Source of the DNA: Escherichia coli
GTDB lineage: Bacteria > Pseudomonadota > Gammaproteobacteria > Enterobacterales > Enterobacteriaceae
Direction: 5' to 3' (one strand)
DNA length: 64,000 nt
Assembly (NCBI RefSeq): GCF_011045215.1
Contig: NZ_CP049201.1
Shown in pieces: positions 31,808-44,882 of this stretch. Within the stretch, counting starts at the first letter, position 1. Every line of letters begins with the position of its first letter. Below the pieces are notes generated by a model. It was not told where the DNA came from. It did not search any database and was given only the letters and a program-made list of their open reading frames with translations. The position numbers and the translations under genes are program-made.

Positions 31808-31865
31808 TAAAAACGGCGGCAGAGCAGTCACGGAGTAAAACTGATACCGCCAAACGTCACCAGAA
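31808..31865 (-). ncRNA. dicF: DicF sRNA (ftsZ-targeting Hfq-dependent antisense RNA)
   Basis: The minus strand reads tttctggtgacgtttggcggtatcagttttactccgtgactgctctgccgccgttttt. This is essentially the K-12 DicF sequence as I remember it, including the terminator stem and U tail. Confidence 0.85.
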
Positions 31866-35831: not shown

Positions 35832-36470
35832 ATGAAGATGAAAAACATGTCTGAAGTGTTGACCCAAGAAAAGCTTATTTTTGTTGCCCAGAGACTAAAG
35901 GCCCTCGCGCAGTCAGGCCTGACCTATTCAAAAGACGTCTTTGACAAGGAACGCTATGAAGCCTTGCGTGAAATTGCCGCTGGACTGCTGAGTTCGCAGT
36001 TTGATATTAGCCGCAATGATTTGTTTCATGTATCGGAAACGGGTTACGCGACGCCCAAAACAGATGTGCGTGCGTTTATCCTGCGTAATAATCGTATTCT
36101 GATGGTGAAAGAGGCTGCAGATGGATTATGGAGTCTTCCTGGCGGATGGGCAGATGTTGGAGATACACCTTCTGAAGCTGTGCGTCGAGAGGTCGAAGAA
36201 GAAACCGGATTAAAAGTCAGAGTGACTAAACTATTGGGAGTTTGGGATCGTAATCTTCACGGCCATCCGCCTTTACCCTGGCATGTTTACAAGCTGATTT
36301 TTCTCTGTGAAGAAGTAGGTGGCAGCCTGTCAATCAGCCATGAGTCACTCGATGCTGATTTTTTTGATGTCAACGACCTGCCTGAATTGTCGCTTTCAAG
36401 AATTGTGCCTGAGCAGATTGCTGTCAGCCTGAGAGTAGCGAAAGGTGATGAAAAAACATGGTTTGATTAA
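35832..36470 (+). CDS. NUDIX hydrolase with N-terminal helical extension (ADP-ribose pyrophosphatase-like)
   Basis: Near-canonical Nudix box GGWADVGDTPSEAVRREVEEETGL (REVEEETGL fits REUxEExGU). 212 aa. Several in-frame ATGs near the start. Confidence 0.8.
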   Translation: MKMKNMSEVLTQEKLIFVAQRLKALAQSGLTYSKDVFDKERYEALREIAAGLLSSQFDISRNDLFHVSETGYATPKTDVRAFILRNNRILMVKEAADGLWSLPGGWADVGDTPSEAVRREVEEETGLKVRVTKLLGVWDRNLHGHPPLPWHVYKLIFLCEEVGGSLSISHESLDADFFDVNDLPELSLSRIVPEQIAVSLRVAKGDEKTWFD

Positions 36471-36493
36471 CTTTCTTCTGCAACCATTAAGGA

Positions 36494-37138
36494 ATGGCAA
36501 TGATATTCAACGCTAAGGGTTTTTTATTCGATATGGACGGTACGCTGGTTGATTCAACAGCCGTAGTGGAAAACGTCTGGAGAGATTTTTGTGCAGAATA
36601 CGGTCTTGATTCTCAGGCTGTGATTGCTTACGCACACGGGCGGCAAACGATTGATACACTAACGCATTTTATTGGTGCAGGTGAGAAAACCAATAAAATC
36701 GCGGCCTCACTCGAAGAGGTTGAAATCAACACGACAGAAGGCGTTACTGAAGTAAAAGGGGCCGCTGCACTCTTATCAAAACTGCCACCGGATAGCTGGG
36801 CACTTGTCACTTCTGCAGGCAGAATGCTTGCCGAAAACAGGATGAAAGCGGCTAATCTCCCCTTACCCAGAGTAATGGTGTGTGCAGAAGATGTAATGAC
36901 GGGAAAACCAAGTCCCGAGGGTTACATCAAAGCAGCTTTGGCTTTGGGCCTTGAGCCTGGTGAATGCGTGGTATTTGAGGATGCATCTGCGGGTATAAAA
37001 GCAGGGCTGGCAAGTGGAGCTTCGGTAATAGCTGTTCAGCCTGACGCTCTGGGATCATCTGAAGCCCATGCCGTCAGCGAACTGTCTGACATTATGGTCA
37101 AGATTTCCGGAGAACGTTTCAATATCATCTGTGGTTAA
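36494..37138 (+). CDS. HAD-superfamily sugar phosphatase (YfbT/HxpA-like)
   Basis: Motif I FLFDMDGTLVDS, motif II VTSAG, motif III GKPSPEGY, motif IV FEDASAGIKAG. Colinear with remembered YfbT. Confidence 0.8.
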   Translation: MAMIFNAKGFLFDMDGTLVDSTAVVENVWRDFCAEYGLDSQAVIAYAHGRQTIDTLTHFIGAGEKTNKIAASLEEVEINTTEGVTEVKGAAALLSKLPPDSWALVTSAGRMLAENRMKAANLPLPRVMVCAEDVMTGKPSPEGYIKAALALGLEPGECVVFEDASAGIKAGLASGASVIAVQPDALGSSEAHAVSELSDIMVKISGERFNIICG

Positions 37139-37512: not shown

Positions 37513-37566
37513 GGCTGCGGGTGCTTGAGGCTATCTGCCTCGGGCATGAACACCAACGGCAGATAG

Positions 37567-37639
37567 AGAAAAGCCCCAGTTAACATTACGCGTCCTGCAA
37601 GACGCTTAACATTAATCTGAGGCCAATTTCATGCTAGAC
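37567..37639 (-). ncRNA. Candidate Sok antisense RNA
   Basis: Minus-strand TTGCCT (37674-69)-N17-TAACCT (37651-46) faces the mok start region. There is a small hairpin gcgtc/gacgc, and the U-run is only 4 nt. The boundaries are guesses. Confidence 0.3.
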
Positions 37640-37843
37640 ACATGTAGGTTAGCCTCTTACGTGCCGAAAGGCAAGGAGAAGCAGGCTATGAAGCAGCAAA
37701 AGGCGATGTTAATCGCCCTGATCGTCATCTGTTTAACCGTCATAGTGACGGCACTGGTAACGAGGAAAGACCTCTGCGAGGTACGAATCCGAACCGGCCA
37801 GACGGAGGTCGCTGTCTTCACAGCTTACGAACCTGAGGAGTAA
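37631..37843 (+). CDS. Mok (in-frame upstream extension whose translation is coupled to hok)
   Basis: MLDTCRLASYVPKGKEKQA followed by the Hok sequence. Same layout as the K-12 MokB/MokC entries as I remember them. Confidence 0.55.
   Translation: MLDTCRLASYVPKGKEKQAMKQQKAMLIALIVICLTVIVTALVTRKDLCEVRIRTGQTEVAVFTAYEPEE
37688..37843 (+). CDS. hokD: Hok-family type I toxin (HokD/RelF-like)
   Basis: MKQQKAMLIALIVICLTVIVTALVTRKDLCEVRIRTGQTEVAVFTAYEPEE (51 aa). Confidence 0.9.
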   Translation: MKQQKAMLIALIVICLTVIVTALVTRKDLCEVRIRTGQTEVAVFTAYEPEE

Positions 37844-38657: not shown

Positions 38658-39707
38658 GTGCGGGTATTACTTCGACCTGTTCTGGTACCGGAACTCGGGC
38701 TGGTGGTCGTTAAGCCGGGCCGTGAATCCATGCCGGTATTCCACAATACCCGGGTACTGGTGGAGCCGGAACCGAAAAGCATGCGTAATCTGCCGTCCGG
38801 GATCGTTCCTGCCGTTCGCCAGCCGCTGGTGGAAGACAAAACATTGCTGCCGTTTTTCAGTAATGCACGGGTAATTCGTGCTGCTGGTGGTGCTGGTGCA
38901 TTGTCTGACTGGCTGTTGCGCCATATTAAATCCTGCCAGTGGCCACACGGCGATTATCATCACAGCGAAACCGTTATTCACCGTTATGGTACCGGCGCAA
39001 TGGTGTTGTGCTGGCACTGCGACAACCAGCTGCGTGACCAGACATCCGAATCACTCGAGCAACTTGCTCATCAAAACCTGTCAGCATGGATGATTGACGT
39101 CATCGGTCACGCAATAAGCGGTACGCAGGAGCGTGAATTATCTCTGGCTGAATTATCCTGGTGGGCGGTCCGCAATCAGGTGGCGGACGCGCTACCGGAA
39201 GCGGTATTACGTCGTTCGCTGGGGTTGCGTGCGGAAAAAATCCGCTCCATGTACCGTGAAAGCGACATCGTACCGGGAGAGCAGACCGCCACCAGCATAC
39301 TGAAACAGCGCACAAAAAATCTTGCGCCGCTGCCTCACGCCCACCAGCAACAGAACCCACCACAGGAAAAGACGGTGGTCAGCATTGCCGTTGATCCTGA
39401 GTCTCCGGAATCTTTCATGAAACGACCTAAACGTCGCCGCTGGGTTAATGAAAAGTACACGCGCTGGGTTAAGACACAGCCGTGTGCATGTTGTGGAAAG
39501 CCCGCTGATGATCCCCACCACCTGATAGGCCACGGTCAGGGGGGAATGGGTACAAAAGCGCATGACCTCTTTGTGTTGCCTTTGTGCAGAAAGCATCACG
39601 ACGAGCTGCATGCGGATACCGTGGCATTTGAAGAGAAGTATGGCTCCCAGCTGGAGCTGATATTTCGTTTTATCGATCGTGCGCTGGCAATTGGCGTGCT
39701 GGCCTGA
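38658..39707 (+). CDS. ydfU: DUF968 protein (YdfU-like)
   Basis: 349 aa with a GTG start. The C-terminal CACCGKPADDPHHLIGHGQGGMGTKAHDLFVLPLCRKHHDELH is the DUF968 signature. Confidence 0.8.
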   Translation: MRVLLRPVLVPELGLVVVKPGRESMPVFHNTRVLVEPEPKSMRNLPSGIVPAVRQPLVEDKTLLPFFSNARVIRAAGGAGALSDWLLRHIKSCQWPHGDYHHSETVIHRYGTGAMVLCWHCDNQLRDQTSESLEQLAHQNLSAWMIDVIGHAISGTQERELSLAELSWWAVRNQVADALPEAVLRRSLGLRAEKIRSMYRESDIVPGEQTATSILKQRTKNLAPLPHAHQQQNPPQEKTVVSIAVDPESPESFMKRPKRRRWVNEKYTRWVKTQPCACCGKPADDPHHLIGHGQGGMGTKAHDLFVLPLCRKHHDELHADTVAFEEKYGSQLELIFRFIDRALAIGVLA

Positions 39708-39724
39708 TTTTGTGGAGAAAGTTG

Positions 39725-40069
39725 ATGCGTGATATGTATGAAGTTTTAGACCGCTGGGGAGCGTGGGCTGCAGCAGATAACAGTGGTGTGGACTGGCAGC
39801 CGATAGCAGCAGGCTTTAAGGGGCTTTTACCTCATGGTAAAAAAATACGCCTTCAGTGTGATGATGATGAAGGCATCATGATAGACGGCTGTGTTGCCCG
39901 CCTGTGTAAGTATAAACCAGACGAATATGAGCTGATCATTGCTCACTTCGTTATAGGTATTTCACTGCGTTCTATTGCGAAGAGACGCAGATGCTCAGAT
40001 GGAACAATCCGGAAGCAATTGCAGACTGCGTTAGGTTTCATTAATGGGGTTATGTACATGCTCAAGTAA
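39725..40069 (+). CDS. Late antiterminator Q (QuuD/phage-82-type)
   Basis: MRDMYEVLDRWGAWAAADNSGVDWQPIAAGFKGLLP...CDDDEG..IDGCVARL is colinear with remembered DLP12 QuuD. A GGAG SD lies 7 nt upstream of ATG 39725. Confidence 0.8.
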   Translation: MRDMYEVLDRWGAWAAADNSGVDWQPIAAGFKGLLPHGKKIRLQCDDDEGIMIDGCVARLCKYKPDEYELIIAHFVIGISLRSIAKRRRCSDGTIRKQLQTALGFINGVMYMLK

Positions 40070-41288
40070 TATTTGGCATTAATTTAAATAAAATACCGAT
40101 GATGCCTATGAATGTAGGCATCCATGCTAGTGATAATAAACTGTCAAGCACCTTATGACAAAAATCCTCATTGTCATTTAATTTTTTAATAGCCTCTTCT
40201 AAGCTCTCTTTAAGATCGCTGGTGTCATCCTTTATTCTATATCTTAATTGTCCAAAAAGTATTTCTTTAGAGTGTGAAATACGAGCAAGTTGTTTTTTTT
40301 GTGACACAATCATTGCAGATGTTATTATTGCTGTGATAATCAATCCAATTAAAGCAATAATCCAATCAGCTTTTGTTGTTAATTTGAAAATAGCAATTGA
40401 ACCAGCTAGTGAAATAGGTATTGCAAGAGCTTTGTTAGAAATTTCTGAAATTATTTTTGACAGTTTTTCTGAGTAATCGAGTTCAGCATCAACAACTTCT
40501 TTCCTTGCTTTATGAAAAGAAAATGCCGATATATAAGCAGCTAAGTTGTTCGTATAAAGTTCGCATATGAAATCCCACTTGTTAATTAACTCGACAAAGG
40601 AATTTCCATTTTTATTAACATACTCAATAACTGTGTTTCTGAAAGTGTTAATCTTTTCAATGTGATGGGCATCAGTAGTAGCTTCACTACTTACTAATGT
40701 TTTAACTAACTGAGTATTTACTGTTTTATCATTAAAAATTTCTTCTGTAATATTTGTTTCAATTACAGCAGAAGAAGATTTAGACTCTGAGTTTAAAATA
40801 AAGACTAAACGATAAAATGTACCTTTGCTATCTTTTTTTATATCATGGAAATGAGCAAGCATGGAAAGAGCATTGATTAGCTCACAAATGTCCTCAATTT
40901 TTTGGATATAAGAAGGTTTTGGTGTTTCTAATGAATAGAAATCATCCTCTATAATATAGAAATACTCTGGCATTATGCCTTTCTTGAGCGTGTTTATTTT
41001 TACAAACTCGTTTTTATTTTTATAAAAACGATTCGCACTTCCTTGTGAAATTTTAAACGAGTATGTAAGAAAATTTCCCTTTTCAGGAAAGTCTTCATAA
41101 TCATAAATTAAATGACCATCCACCTCTATTTCGTCAGCTGTACCAGCTTGAAAAGTAGGGTTCAAAATTCTTTTGAACAATGATTTTACGTCTGCATTAT
41201 AAGCTATACGCGCAGAAAACTTAGCCCCGTCAAAATGAGGATAGCTTGATAATCTATACAGATTAACTATTATACTAAAATCATTCAT
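40062..41288 (-). CDS. Hypothetical 408-aa protein: unknown ~285-aa N-terminal domain plus three predicted C-terminal TM segments (candidate effector)
   Basis: AT-rich ORF whose ATG overlaps the upstream stop as ATGA. Hydrophobic segments are ALAIPISLAGSIAIFKL, WIIALIGLIITAIITSAMIV and LLSLAWMPTFIGIIGILFKL. The stop overlaps the Q stop by 8 nt. Confidence 0.75.
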   Translation of the reverse strand: MNDFSIIVNLYRLSSYPHFDGAKFSARIAYNADVKSLFKRILNPTFQAGTADEIEVDGHLIYDYEDFPEKGNFLTYSFKISQGSANRFYKNKNEFVKINTLKKGIMPEYFYIIEDDFYSLETPKPSYIQKIEDICELINALSMLAHFHDIKKDSKGTFYRLVFILNSESKSSSAVIETNITEEIFNDKTVNTQLVKTLVSSEATTDAHHIEKINTFRNTVIEYVNKNGNSFVELINKWDFICELYTNNLAAYISAFSFHKARKEVVDAELDYSEKLSKIISEISNKALAIPISLAGSIAIFKLTTKADWIIALIGLIITAIITSAMIVSQKKQLARISHSKEILFGQLRYRIKDDTSDLKESLEEAIKKLNDNEDFCHKVLDSLLSLAWMPTFIGIIGILFKLMPNIT

Positions 41289-42451
41289 TCTTTATCTTCT
41301 TCATTACTCGGGTTATCAGTTTCTTTCAACGCTCTTCTTATCTTAGTTAATGCTTCAACAGGCAAATTATTAAATGTTAGGCTTTGGTTTTCGTCATCAT
41401 AATATATTTTAGCATCAGTTGTGACACCGAGTAAATCCTTGTCGAAGTGAAAGCTCAATGATGGGGTTTTATATATCACATTGCGGATTTTATCTAAGGA
41501 GTTTTTATTGATTACGAACTCTGATGGGATTCTGACTTCCTCACTATTGAGGTGTTTCATTAATTTATCAACAAGTTCTGTTTTTTCTTCCTCTTTTAAA
41601 TAGGACATATGGCCTGAAGCAAGCGATTCGATATCAGAAAGCCTTGCAGAGTGCTCGTTGTCAAATTGCTTTTCTAAGTATTTGATAACATCATTTCTAA
41701 ATGACTCTGCTTGATTTTTTAAAAGAGGTTCTTTCTTAAAGAAACGCCTTATTTCATCTGGTAACTTACGGGTTGCGCCTGCTGAAGCAATCCCCTTGTC
41801 ACATCCTAATGCTGCTATAAAATATGCTGCCGCTGACTGTCCCGTAGTTTTGCTTATAAAGCTTAGATAACTTAAGTCTGTTTTTTTTAAATCATCTGCT
41901 TTTTGGTATTCTTCATAATATCTGAAATTTATTTTTGCTGCTTGGTTAATATTACCAAGTTCTAAGTGAATCATTTCCTCTGGCTCTAAATTTTCACTAA
42001 TAGTTACGCCATTAGTTTTTTTGATCATTGTAACCAATAGATAACGGAAACCAGATAAAATATAATCAGTAAAAACAACATATCCTCCAGAAGCCCAAAT
42101 CTGCTCTTGAGCAGATTTATACATTTGTTTCATAACTTCCTTCGATAATTCAATGAAATCATTTGAAACAGATTGTTGAACTAAAGAGTATTTATGAAAT
42201 AGTTCTGGTATAGGGCCTTGTTTTGTTTTATTTTTAATAAAAACACCATAATGCGCTGAGTTCCCTTTTGAACCATACAAATCAATAACACCGTCTACTA
42301 ATTTTTTTACTATATCATTTGTTTTATCTAGTTCTGTATCACGAAGATTGTATGGTTTGGAGTGATCGAAGTCTTTATTAGATTCTTTTAAGAGCTCATG
42401 AACGATTACGTGGCGTATGCTTGCTTTGCTCATTTTTTTGGTCAATTCCAT
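41285..42451 (-). CDS. YejK/NdpA-like nucleoid-associated protein (NA37 family) homolog (candidate sensor)
   Basis: 388 aa (or 382 from ATG 42433). Colinear motifs against remembered E. coli YejK: IRHVIVHEL, YGVF, GGYVVFTDY..FRYLLVTMI, ISENLE, LSYLSFISK, AAYFIAALGC. Confidence 0.7.
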   Translation of the reverse strand: MELTKKMSKASIRHVIVHELLKESNKDFDHSKPYNLRDTELDKTNDIVKKLVDGVIDLYGSKGNSAHYGVFIKNKTKQGPIPELFHKYSLVQQSVSNDFIELSKEVMKQMYKSAQEQIWASGGYVVFTDYILSGFRYLLVTMIKKTNGVTISENLEPEEMIHLELGNINQAAKINFRYYEEYQKADDLKKTDLSYLSFISKTTGQSAAAYFIAALGCDKGIASAGATRKLPDEIRRFFKKEPLLKNQAESFRNDVIKYLEKQFDNEHSARLSDIESLASGHMSYLKEEEKTELVDKLMKHLNSEEVRIPSEFVINKNSLDKIRNVIYKTPSLSFHFDKDLLGVTTDAKIYYDDENQSLTFNNLPVEALTKIRRALKETDNPSNEEDKE

Positions 42452-42475
42452 GCGGTTAAGCTAACAATTGTAAAG

Positions 42476-42504
42476 AGCATAATAAATTACTAACGCGTAC
42501 GCAA
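42476..42504 (-). promoter_or_regulatory. Candidate promoter of the AT-rich cassette
   Basis: Minus-strand TTGCGT (42504-42499)-N17-TATGCT (42481-42476), about 25 nt upstream of ATG 42451. Confidence 0.4.
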
Positions 42505-42514
42505 AAACTATCAT
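42487..42514 (+). promoter_or_regulatory. Candidate late promoter pR' (Q target), overlapping the cassette promoter back to back
   Basis: TTACTA-N16-TATCAT on the + strand. A short leader then ends in a hairpin plus T7, like the lambdoid pR'-tR' unit. Confidence 0.35.
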
Positions 42515-42549
42515 AATCTGTTAAGAGTGGTTACTTCGCCACACAGCTT

Positions 42550-42575
42550 AAACCCGCCGTCGAGCGGTTTTTTTG
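42550..42575 (+). terminator. Candidate tR' terminator
   Basis: aaacccgc-cgtcga-gcggttttttt, with a 4-bp GC core extendable by A:T pairs and seven T residues. Confidence 0.5.
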
Positions 42576-42696
42576 TACCTGTAAAACTGGTGCAGTACAG
42601 TAAACACGCTGGTGGTCGTGAATACTGACTTTTTATCTTGCTGGCTTTTTAGACAAGAGTTATTGGTATGTCATGTTAACCAGAAGGGAAAAAGAC

Positions 42697-42900
42697 ATGC
42701 TAAAACAGCAAGATATGACAGAAACCGCCGCCGCAGTCCTTCATTTCTTACCTGCTGACAAGTGGGTAACGCCACGCATGATGACGAGAACTACCGGAGT
42801 AAGCGAAGCCCGGTGCCAGTTAATACTGACTCAGTTAGTTCTGGCGGGTCTGGCGAAGGATAACGGCGGGTACGGGAATAAATTCAGACGCTGCCAGTAA
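42697..42900 (+). CDS. Hypothetical small protein (possible winged-helix)
   Basis: ATG 42697 has an AAGGGA SD. The track ORF begins at 42673. No motif recognised. Confidence 0.4.
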   Translation: MLKQQDMTETAAAVLHFLPADKWVTPRMMTRTTGVSEARCQLILTQLVLAGLAKDNGGYGNKFRRCQ

Positions 42901-43050
42901 TGGCGGTTTCCTGCTGTGAAAATGGGCGGCTGGTGGGTGTTGGTAGCACCTGCCAGCCATTCGCTCATGCTTACTGGTCACAAGCGAACCACGGCCCACT
43001 GCTTTAGCGCAAAAGCAGAGTGAGCCTACCAGAGTTACGCTTACTGATCC

Positions 43051-44103
43051 ATGAAAAATACTGTAAAAATAAACAGTGTTGATTTAATCAACGCTGATTG
43101 CCTGCATTTTATTCAGTCCTTGCCTGATGATTCCATTGATCTGATTGTTACCGATCCGCCGTACTTCAAAGTGAAGCCCAACGGCTGGGACAATCAGTGG
43201 AAAGGGGACGAAGATTACCTGAAGTGGCTGGACTACTGTCTGGCCCAGTTCTGGCGGGTACTGAAACCAGCCGGAAGCCTTTACCTGTTCTGTGGACATC
43301 GCCTGGCATCTGATATTGAGATCATGATGCGTGAACGTTTCAACGTGCTTAACCATATCATCTGGGCGAAGCCGTCCGGACGTTGGAATGGGTGTAATAA
43401 AGAAAGTCTGCGCGCATATTTTCCTGCCACAGAGCGCGTTCTGTTTGCTGAACATTACCAGGGGCCATATCGCGGCAAAAGTGACGGCTATGCGGCAAAA
43501 GAAAGGGAACTCAAACAGCACATAATGGCACCGCTGATATCGTATTTCAGGGATGCTCGTGCCGAACTGGGTATAACGGCAAAACAAATTGCCGAAGCCA
43601 CAGGTAAGAAAAATATGGTTTCCCACTGGTTTGGTGCCAGTCAGTGGCAGTTGCCGAATGAGGCTGACTATCGGAAGTTACAGGCACTGTTTTCCCGTAT
43701 AGCGGCAGAGAAGTTTCAGGAACAACAACTGGAACAACCACACCACCAGCTGGTGGCATCTTATGATTCACTGAATCGCAAATATTCTGAATTGCTGGAT
43801 GAGTTTAAATCTCTCCGGCGCTATTTCTCCGTATCAGTCTCCGTGCCTTATACCGATGTCTGGATGCATAAACCCGTTCAGTTCTACCCGGGTAAACATC
43901 CGTGTGAGAAACCTGCGGATATGCTCCGGCAAATAATCAATGCCAGTAGTCGACCTGGTGATCTGGTTGCTGATTTTTTTATGGGATCCGGTTCCACAAT
44001 AAAAGCAGCAATGGCGCTGGGGCGTCGGGCCTTAGGTGTTGAGCTTGAGTCAGAGCGGTTTAACCAGACAGTGAAAGAGATATACGAGCTGGTGGGGAAA
44101 TAA
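43051..44103 (+). CDS. Orphan DNA methyltransferase (N6A/N4C, beta-class motif order)
   Basis: LIVTDPPYF (motif IV) is N-terminal and DFFMGSGSTIKAA (motif I, FxGxG) is C-terminal. 350 aa, with no adjacent endonuclease-like ORF. Confidence 0.85.
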   Translation: MKNTVKINSVDLINADCLHFIQSLPDDSIDLIVTDPPYFKVKPNGWDNQWKGDEDYLKWLDYCLAQFWRVLKPAGSLYLFCGHRLASDIEIMMRERFNVLNHIIWAKPSGRWNGCNKESLRAYFPATERVLFAEHYQGPYRGKSDGYAAKERELKQHIMAPLISYFRDARAELGITAKQIAEATGKKNMVSHWFGASQWQLPNEADYRKLQALFSRIAAEKFQEQQLEQPHHQLVASYDSLNRKYSELLDEFKSLRRYFSVSVSVPYTDVWMHKPVQFYPGKHPCEKPADMLRQIINASSRPGDLVADFFMGSGSTIKAAMALGRRALGVELESERFNQTVKEIYELVGK

Positions 44104-44169: not shown

Positions 44170-44385
44170 ATGAAATCCATGGATAAGTTAACAACGGGTG
44201 TCGCCTATGGCACCTCAGCAGGTAGTGCCGGGTACTGGTTTTTACAGTTGCTCGATAAAGTCACGCCCTCACAGTGGGCGGCAATAGGTGTGCTGGGTAG
44301 TCTGGTATTTGGCTTGCTGACGTATCTGACAAACCTTTATTTCAAGATTAAAGAAGATAAGCGTAAGGCTGCGAGAGGTGAATAA
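44170..44385 (+). CDS. Phage-21-type pinholin S
   Basis: [71 protein letters not shown], near-identical in pattern to remembered S21. Confidence 0.9.
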
Positions 44386-44882
44386 TGTCGCCATCATTAC
44401 GCAAGGCTGTTGCTGCTGCTATTGGTGGTGGGGCTGTTGCCATAGCGTCTGTGCTCATCACTGGTCCGAGTGGTGACGATGGCCTGGAAGGTGTCAGCTA
44501 CATACCATACAAAGATATCGTTGGCGTATGGACTGTATGTCACGGACACACCGGAAAAGACATCATGCTAGGTAAAACGTATACCGAAGCAGAATGCAAA
44601 GCCCTCCTGAATAAAGACCTTGCCACGGTCGCCAGACAAATTAACCCGTACATCAAAGTCGATATACCGGAAACAACGCGCGGCGCTCTTTACTCGTTCG
44701 TCTACAACGTGGGTGCTGGCAATTTCAGAACATCGACGCTTCTTCGCAAAATAAACCAGGGCGATATCAAAGGCGCATGTGACCAGCTACGTCGCTGGAC
44801 ATACGCTGGCGGTAAGCAATGGAAAGGCCTGATGACTCGTCGTGAGATTGAGCGTGAAGTCTGTTTGTGGGGGCAACAATGA
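44385..44882 (+). CDS. SAR endolysin (T4-lysozyme/GH24 type, R21-like)
   Basis: N-terminal signal-anchor-release segment [18 protein letters not shown], a catalytic E (GLEGVSY) region, and [19 protein letters not shown]. Confidence 0.9.

Follow-up and report, generated by a model that had tools for sequence, protein, structure and literature searches.

The antiterminator gene Q of an Escherichia coli prophage and a two-gene, defense-type cassette on the opposite strand end tail to tail with an overlap of 8 nucleotides (nt), and this junction is a genuine convergent gene end without a terminator. The prophage lies in contig NZ_CP049201.1 (RefSeq assembly GCF_011045215.1), of which a 64,000-nt stretch, here called the window, was analyzed; coordinates are window positions unless a locus is named. 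As read from the sequence, transcription of either gene probably continues antisense into its partner. That this antisense overlap occurs and is tolerated, with at most a side benefit, we hold to be an even proposition, and in our judgment the arrangement owes most to tolerance and compaction in a "safe" orientation.

Defense systems borne by prophages must live alongside the lytic cycle of their carrier, and for their coupling to it the locus provides a clean, conserved test case: an abortive-infection-type cassette overlaps the master regulator of the late genes and sits between that regulator and its putative promoter. An initial annotation of the window had read the junction as an antisense switch, and the structural premises of that idea hold and generalize. 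The locus touches three known kinds of arrangement, namely antisense control of phage switch genes, opposite-facing defense cargo of prophages, and PANGU-like operons.

The junction and its two partners

The features at the junction are as follows.

39725..40069, plus strand: antiterminator Q gene (PF06530), 114 amino acids (aa) from the ATG at 39725, the start given by NCBI's Prokaryotic Genome Annotation Pipeline (PGAP) in locus L001
40067-40069, plus strand: Q stop codon TAA (direct reading)
40062-40064, minus strand: stop codon TGA of the 408-aa open reading frame (ORF), read as TCA (direct reading)
40062-40069, both strands: 8-nt tail-to-tail overlap of the Q and 408-aa coding regions (direct reading)
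40062..41288, minus strand: 408-aa protein (B408), second cassette gene, Pag2B-like effector candidate (domain layout)
41285..42451, minus strand: NA37/YejK-like nucleoid-associated protein (NAP), first cassette gene, Pag2A-like (PF04245, E = 2e-50)

Read directly on the plus strand, positions 40060-40069 are gcTCAagTAA. PGAP annotates the same gene pair with the same 8-nt overlap in the identical copy in E. coli AR434 (L001), and the overlap is unchanged in all 29 E. coli genomes with the module. Stop positions and the annotation of the identical copy thus bear out the convergent overlap given by the initial annotation. An ORF-calling artifact was considered and rejected, as the stops are mechanical and the conserved cores of the two proteins reach to about 6 and about 17 codons from them.

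The lack of a separating terminator, also claimed at the outset, was upheld by two empty searches: a consensus scan found no intrinsic terminator on either strand between 39946 and 41538, and the same rule, re-implemented, found no terminator-like site in the interval of −40 to +90 nt around the Q stop. The phrase "no room for a terminator" concerns intergenic space; weak hairpins exist within the coding sequence (40099-40120, and 40155-40177 with a T-run). No RNA family was found at the junction (Rfam; gathering thresholds for the whole window, E-value thresholds for 39500-43100). With an 8-nt overlap and empty scans, the pair has the convergent, terminator-less layout of paQ-type and noncontiguous-operon antisense arrangements.

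The junction was compared across 14 genera of enterobacteria, in about 20 distinct loci (E. coli, Shigella, Ewingella, Pantoea, Xenorhabdus, Pectobacterium, Providencia, Proteus, Edwardsiella, Klebsiella, Kosakonia, Citrobacter, Serratia, and Cronobacter). A convergent, abutting PF06530 Q gene lies beside every intact homologous cassette examined, with stop-to-stop distances of −18, −13, −12, −8, −4 (the commonest), 0, and +3 nt (negative values are overlaps), over identities down to 33% for the 408-aa protein and 54-60% for Q. The exceptions are Shigella flexneri (L008), where both cassette genes are frameshifted; a Pantoea insect symbiont (L015), with a fragmented cassette and undetectable Q; and a metagenomic relative (L016-L018; 31% identical) with no Q. 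In Pantoea rodasii (L007), Q is split by a frameshift. Judged from this comparison, the recurrence of the tight tail-to-tail junction exceeds chance.

The distance from the GFIxG motif of Q to the WxP motif of the effector is 63-68 nt in all clades and nearly indel-free. This length just fits the hydrophobic tail of Q (6-12 residues) and the last transmembrane helix of the effector, so the stops collide. Since the spacing of the cores is nearly free of indels, plain inheritance of a compact junction explains the conservation without a switch.

Q matches PF06530 (Q82/QuuD-like) with 149.4 bits (cut-off, 26; E = 5e-44; profile positions 1-113 of 118), is 48% identical to QuuD of K-12, and is weakly similar to the Q21 chains 6jnx and 6p18. 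Mechanical ORF calling from the TTG at 39710 gives 119 aa. A DUF968 gene lies upstream; downstream come a 17-mer, a −10-like element, and a hairpin/T-run, followed by methylase, holin, and lysozyme genes. This is the place expected of a Q gene, at the end of the early-right operon with a putative late promoter, a terminator, and the lysis genes beyond it. Two terminator-like hairpins with T-rich tails (plus strand, 39641-39703) lie just upstream of the Q start, in the last 70 nt of the DUF968 gene, and could limit early transcription into Q.

From about 40050 to 42500, GC content is 29-38% (cassette, about 31-32%) versus about 50% in both flanks. The stop of the NA37 gene (PGAP start, 42433) overlaps the ATG of the 408-aa gene by 4 nt (ATGA, 41285-41288). 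The 408-aa protein has no Pfam or PADLOC match, and PADLOC 2.0.0 holds no model for either cassette protein. Its residues 1-285 are mildly acidic (pI 5.46; net charge, −8), and two hydrophobic segments follow at about 287-331 and 381-405 (Kyte-Doolittle windows of >1.6), which are helical in the AlphaFold2 model (predicted local distance difference test, 85). The model consists of an N-terminal alpha/beta domain and then long helical hairpins; Foldseek against the PDB returned no match with E <0.2, only nonsignificant helical-bundle, ClyA, and CorA hits. The family comprises 59 clusters, and all named members are from Enterobacterales.

Type II PANGU, from E. coli, acts by abortive infection and consists of a YejK-like sensor, Pag2A, and a transmembrane effector, Pag2B; its reported trigger is phage-induced degradation of the host genome by T4 EndoII, and both genes would be expected to be needed for protection against T4/Bas34 (bioRxiv 10.64898/2026.04.06.716658). 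PANGU systems are recognized by a NAP gene in an operon with a non-NAP partner <40 bp away, and Pag2B by an acidic, DNA-mimicking N-terminal domain ("DMK") to which the NAP binds (bioRxiv 10.64898/2026.04.06.716658). The words "prophage" and "antitermin" are absent from the main text of that preprint (bioRxiv 10.64898/2026.04.06.716658). The cassette is likewise a two-gene E. coli operon with a YejK/NA37-like gene first and a C-terminal transmembrane partner second: its PF04245 gene has a partner that overlaps it by 4 nt, and hydrophobicity and the model both place transmembrane segments at the C terminus of the 408-aa protein. The likeness is one of architecture, drawn without sequence comparison to the PANGU-Ecu proteins. 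The cassette matches a horizontally acquired pair of sensor and membrane effector with type II PANGU architecture, and this foreign (32% GC), two-gene, defense-type module bears out the defense module of the initial annotation.

Cargo slot and putative late promoter

To the right of the cassette, the following features were found.

42491..42507, plus strand: invariant 17-mer TAACGCGTACGCAAAAA, which bounds the cargo slot on the right (one exact copy in the window)
42514..42527, plus strand: TAnnnT (TAATCT, −10-like) and then invariant TGnTAAGAG, putative −10/start of the late promoter PR' (alignment of 15 loci from 8 genera)
42550..42576, plus strand: tR'-like GC hairpin and T-run (AAACCCGCCGTCGAGCGGTTTTTTTG) (terminator scan)
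42706-42900, plus strand: small ORF (WP_001355891-like), the first downstream of the putative PR' (annotation of L001)
43051-44103, plus strand: DNA methyltransferase (PF01555, E = 5e-42), with the lysis genes next
44385-44882: lysozyme

The 17-mer was exact in 16 of the 25 loci compared, from several genera and with other cargo included, and, if up to 2 mismatches are allowed, was present downstream of Q in all surveyed loci with a long enough flank. At three empty sites (viral contigs L081, L086, and L087), it begins 16 nt past the Q stop. The block of 17-mer, TAnnnT, and TGnTAAGAG is kept from E. coli to Proteus and Xenorhabdus, whereas the flanking sequence is not. A GC hairpin with a T-run follows the block in most loci. 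The tR'-like hairpin of the window is conserved in the E. coli loci; some genera have other hairpin/T-runs, and in others the case is unclear. We infer from position and conservation that the block is the Q-binding/late-promoter (PR') region, with its proximal terminator, for this Q subfamily, TAACGCGTACGCAAAAA and TGTTAAGAG being candidate elements of the late promoter/Q-binding site.

Two comparisons bear on the reach of this element. Phage Ayreon, with a Q of a different family, carries a promoter-like sequence and an annotated terminator directly after Q, and the 17-mer is absent from it. The 17-mer is also absent from prophage DLP12 of K-12, whose QuuD is more distant (48% identical), and the element is on that account specific to the Q subfamily of the window. 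The quuD-nmpC-essD region of DLP12 otherwise resembles the window in having a PF06530 Q, then a moron on the opposite strand (the porin gene nmpC), and lysis genes beyond it, but between quuD and nmpC lie about 190 nt that contain GC hairpins. A full-text literature search with the 17-mer core returned only unrelated cloning primers. The block provides a candidate Q-binding/late-promoter element for this Q subfamily.

The slot between the Q stop and the 17-mer (40070-42490 in the window) was surveyed in 80 viral contigs with close Q relatives together with the other loci compared here, about 100 loci in all (L002-L105), and 26 cargo types were defined by nucleotide clustering. Cargo is 625-3,752 nt long and low in GC throughout (0.30-0.43), and every type (26/26) is antisense to Q: minus-strand ORFs add up to 46.4 kb, plus-strand ORFs to 0.8 kb. 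Matches to defense models among the scanned cargo are PDC-S60, LmuA/DRT-like, PD-Lambda-5_A-like, and caspase-like; NA37 operons in the slot fall into four distinct clades, and for several cargo proteins neither Pfam nor PADLOC gave a match. The cargo types border Q as follows.

408-aa cassette family (types 2, 5, 13, 15, and 16): stops −18 to +3 nt; no intergenic hairpin
Type 11 (another NA37 operon; L070 and L088): stops −21 to −30 nt; no intergenic hairpin
Types 4 and 14: stops −8 nt; no intergenic hairpin
Most other types: stops +7 to +40 nt (type 9, 514 nt); hairpin in 12 types

The 12 types with a hairpin (1, 3, 6, 7, 10, 12, 17, 19, 20, 22, 23, and 26) carry a perfect, GC-rich stem of 6-12 bp between the genes, the shape of a bidirectional terminator. 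A terminator-less overlap is typical of the 408-aa cassette family; in the slot as a whole it is uncommon, though a few other types share it. Besides this family, three NA37 operons that are distant from one another lie at L070:6328-8741, L097:672-2874, and L067:6387-8464, with partners of 407, 395, and 330 aa, respectively. The first overlaps Q by 30 nt and its relative in L088 does so by 21 nt; those of L097 (type 12) and L067 (type 22) have an intergenic GC hairpin.

Literature searches, limited to the library at hand, found no specific description of a defense hotspot between Q and the late promoter. The slot is sharply bounded, from the Q stop to TAACGCGTACGCAAAAA, and its cargo of at least 26 low-GC types, many of them unassigned, makes it a source of candidate defense systems and a natural genomic home for PANGU-like operons. 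Slot and candidate Q-binding element together may be a more useful lead than the junction.

Transcription across the junction and reasons for the arrangement

In the arrangement we favor, the cassette occupies the cargo slot between the Q stop and the putative late-promoter region of Q. Cargo in the slot is always antisense, and a cargo promoter active in the lysogen would read back into Q and the early genes. Owing to this orientation, read-through avoids the late and lysis genes, and the uniformity of the cargo suggests that genes expressed in the lysogen must not read into them. Reading back into Q would be harmless or mildly useful, which makes a terminator dispensable. At the junction of this cassette family, the effector's final transmembrane helix and Q's hydrophobic tail are packed together, and no insulating hairpin has been gained; cassette transcripts would bear an antisense-Q 3' tail until Rho or ribonucleases end them.

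The putative late promoter lies downstream of the cassette, and late transcription would consequently not cross it. Only early-right read-through past Q would do so, running antisense over the 2.4-kb cassette to the terminator at 42550-42576 after the putative PR'. Gene order and the position of this promoter support the claim of the initial annotation that a rightward transcript past Q would be antisense to the cassette. Reciprocal interference would follow unless cryptic or Rho-dependent termination intervenes.

Two hairpins lie within the 408-aa coding sequence.

40099..40120, minus strand: 8-bp hairpin GATGCCTA(N6)TAGGCATC in the last transmembrane codons of the 408-aa gene (RNA folds)
40155..40189, plus strand: weak AT-rich hairpin ATGACAA...TTGTCAT (2 GC pairs) and then TTAATTTTTTAA (RNA fold)

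Rho and H-NS curb antisense transcription in AT-rich foreign DNA. The junction might on these grounds be insulated despite the overlap: the embedded hairpin with its U-rich stretch, or Rho, would end the cassette RNA, while Rho and H-NS would end Q read-through within a few hundred bases, little antisense RNA would be made, and the overlap would reflect compaction. We regard this as a tentative alternative on the unlikely side. The minus-strand hairpin, followed by the U-rich AUCGGUAUUUUAUUU, is predicted in both the minimum-energy and the centroid folds and is present in the clade of E. coli, Shigella, Ewingella, Pantoea, and Klebsiella, with equivalents in five other cassettes of that clade (L004, L006, L007, L013, and L022) and one compensatory change; clade-specific AT-rich hairpins occur near the stop in Xenorhabdus (L009 and L011) and Providencia (L012); and the plus-strand hairpin and T-run at 40155-40189 is the sole terminator-like shape that Q read-through would meet. 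Termination at 40099-40120, however, would fall 35 nt before the 408-aa stop and yield mRNAs without a stop codon, translating ribosomes should melt the hairpin, and it is absent at that position from the Xenorhabdus, Edwardsiella, Providencia, Proteus, and Pectobacterium clades. The plus-strand hairpin, with its 2 GC pairs, is below the threshold of the scan and is not conserved in the TUM1880 cassette (53% identical). Antisense-Q RNA has more C than G throughout, but its strongest C-rich/G-poor stretch, of the kind at which Rho typically loads, begins 235 and ends 390 nt beyond the stop, in the 5'-terminal part of Q (maximum C/G, 3.3 at 274-351 nt); Rho termination, if any, would for this reason come after most of Q had been covered.

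The hairpin at 40099-40120 is built by the W-M/V-P and G-I/T codons of the last transmembrane helix and may be a coincidence of codon choice. Its one compensatory change, A-T to G-C (ATG...ATC to GTG...ACC), alters both amino acids. As a conserved embedded terminator, it was rejected as the main explanation on the grounds of one clade, one compensatory change, and a position 35 nt ahead of the stop; given that position and its absence from the other clades, we do not take it to be the terminator.

In phage lambda, the CII-activated promoter paQ lies inside Q, and its antisense RNA lowers Q function and delays the late genes (PMC2327240). Read-through from the cassette would resemble it as an RNA opposite Q, with the same target and, by analogy, the same action; paQ, however, is a dedicated promoter, whereas the antisense RNA here would be the unterminated tail of a defense-operon mRNA, and the Q of lambda is of a different family from that of the window (PF06530). 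A further convergent RNA of lambda, OOP, meets cII at its 3' end. By analogy with paQ, the tolerated overlap could plausibly bring damping of Q as a side benefit.

The second precedent is the "noncontiguous operon" taiEcA/atiEcA of phi80, whose opposite-facing defense gene is expressed in the lysogen and whose protein falls on Q overexpression (Nat Commun 2024, PMC11364771); the level of Tai protein is unchanged after mitomycin C induction (PMC11364771). Like the cassette, taiEcA is a prophage defense gene facing against a Q-tied phage operon. It splits the Q-dependent late operon at a point past the late promoter, beside a counter-defense gene, whereas the cassette lies upstream of the putative late promoter, overlaps Q with its 3' end, and has no evident counter-defense gene.

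Both precedents, control of Q by paQ and the Q-dependent drop of Tai, lend themselves to the proposal of the initial annotation that the junction is a dedicated collision/antisense toggle. The missing terminator would have been selected: in the lysogen, anti-Q RNA would damp leaky Q, and on induction strong early-right transcription through Q would silence the cassette, sparing the phage from triggering its own defense. The tight junction is kept down to 33% protein identity in 14 genera while 12 other cargo types have a hairpin, the unrelated NA37 operon of type 11 also overlaps Q (21-30 nt), and the cassette starts <60 nt from the putative late promoter, with both of its ends touching Q-related elements. 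Should antisense interplay of any kind take place, the module would serve both in defense and in the regulation of prophage induction, and this would explain why slot cargo is always antisense. We nevertheless find such a toggle unlikely. The distant NA37 operons of types 12 (L097) and 22 (L067) do have an intergenic hairpin, the length of the overlap varies (−18 to +3 nt) with no conserved junction sequence, and the nearly indel-free spacing fits simple inheritance; a compact junction frozen in a safe orientation accounts for the data just as well. Tai of phi80, too, was steady after mitomycin C. Silencing to avoid self-triggering is the weak part of the proposal: PANGU is reported to sense the degradation of host DNA, which lambdoid phages to our knowledge do not bring about, and the self-protection rationale is thereby weakened.

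A more elaborate version, which we think rather improbable, would connect both ends of the cassette to the late switch. The cassette's unterminated 3' end would be the source of a constitutive, paQ-like anti-Q RNA that sets the threshold for Q and stabilizes lysogeny, while its promoter would overlap the Q-binding/late-promoter element, and Q loading at PR' together with early read-through would turn the cassette off at the lytic switch. The NA37 start and the 17-mer are only 39-57 nt apart, and the cassette promoter must consequently overlap the putative late-promoter region. If true, this version would make the Q-PR' slot a general docking site that couples antisense defense cargo to the life cycle of the prophage.

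Several points weigh against tolerance and compaction as we have described them. H-NS may silence AT-rich cargo while the prophage is in the lysogenic state, in which case the cassette is perhaps not "on," and a scan of the 39-57 nt between the NA37 start and the 17-mer found no minus-strand cassette promoter. The hairpin and U-rich stretch at 40099-40120 could stop some cassette transcripts before Q. The reading of the 17-mer as a Q-binding/late-promoter element draws on position and conservation. The cassettes, finally, share one ancestor, so that the number of loci lends no independent support to selection. The best promoter candidate for the cassette, TACAAT at 42472-42467, was rejected, having no acceptable −35 element.

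Prophage context and distribution

Q and the cassette occur together in 29 of 5,426 complete E. coli genomes. Q alleles of ≥99% identity number 29 records, equal to the count of the cassette, and both listed examples have the cassette gene under the match. The cassette was found in no isolated phage of the phage collection searched. In AR434, the same block of Q, cassette, and methylase lies in a different, partly deleted prophage next to dusA, which makes the block a mosaic module.

The lambdoid prophage of the window is Rac/Qin-like and carries an integrase, a RecE-like exonuclease, DicF, a helix-turn-helix repressor, a YdaT-like protein, and hok/sok. It was placed in the Qin/Rac-like group because of the hok/sok pair (37519-37843; Rfam sok, 115 bits; Hok, PF01848) and the DicF small RNA gene (31814-31865). 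Upstream of hok/sok in the early-right region, genes for a NUDIX hydrolase and a HAD-family hydrolase (35832-37138) form a cargo of metabolic appearance that is unusual there. The AR434 prophage carries, by the integrase at dusA, genes for a reverse transcriptase and a SLATT-domain protein (L001 17820-19719), a pair of defense-type appearance.

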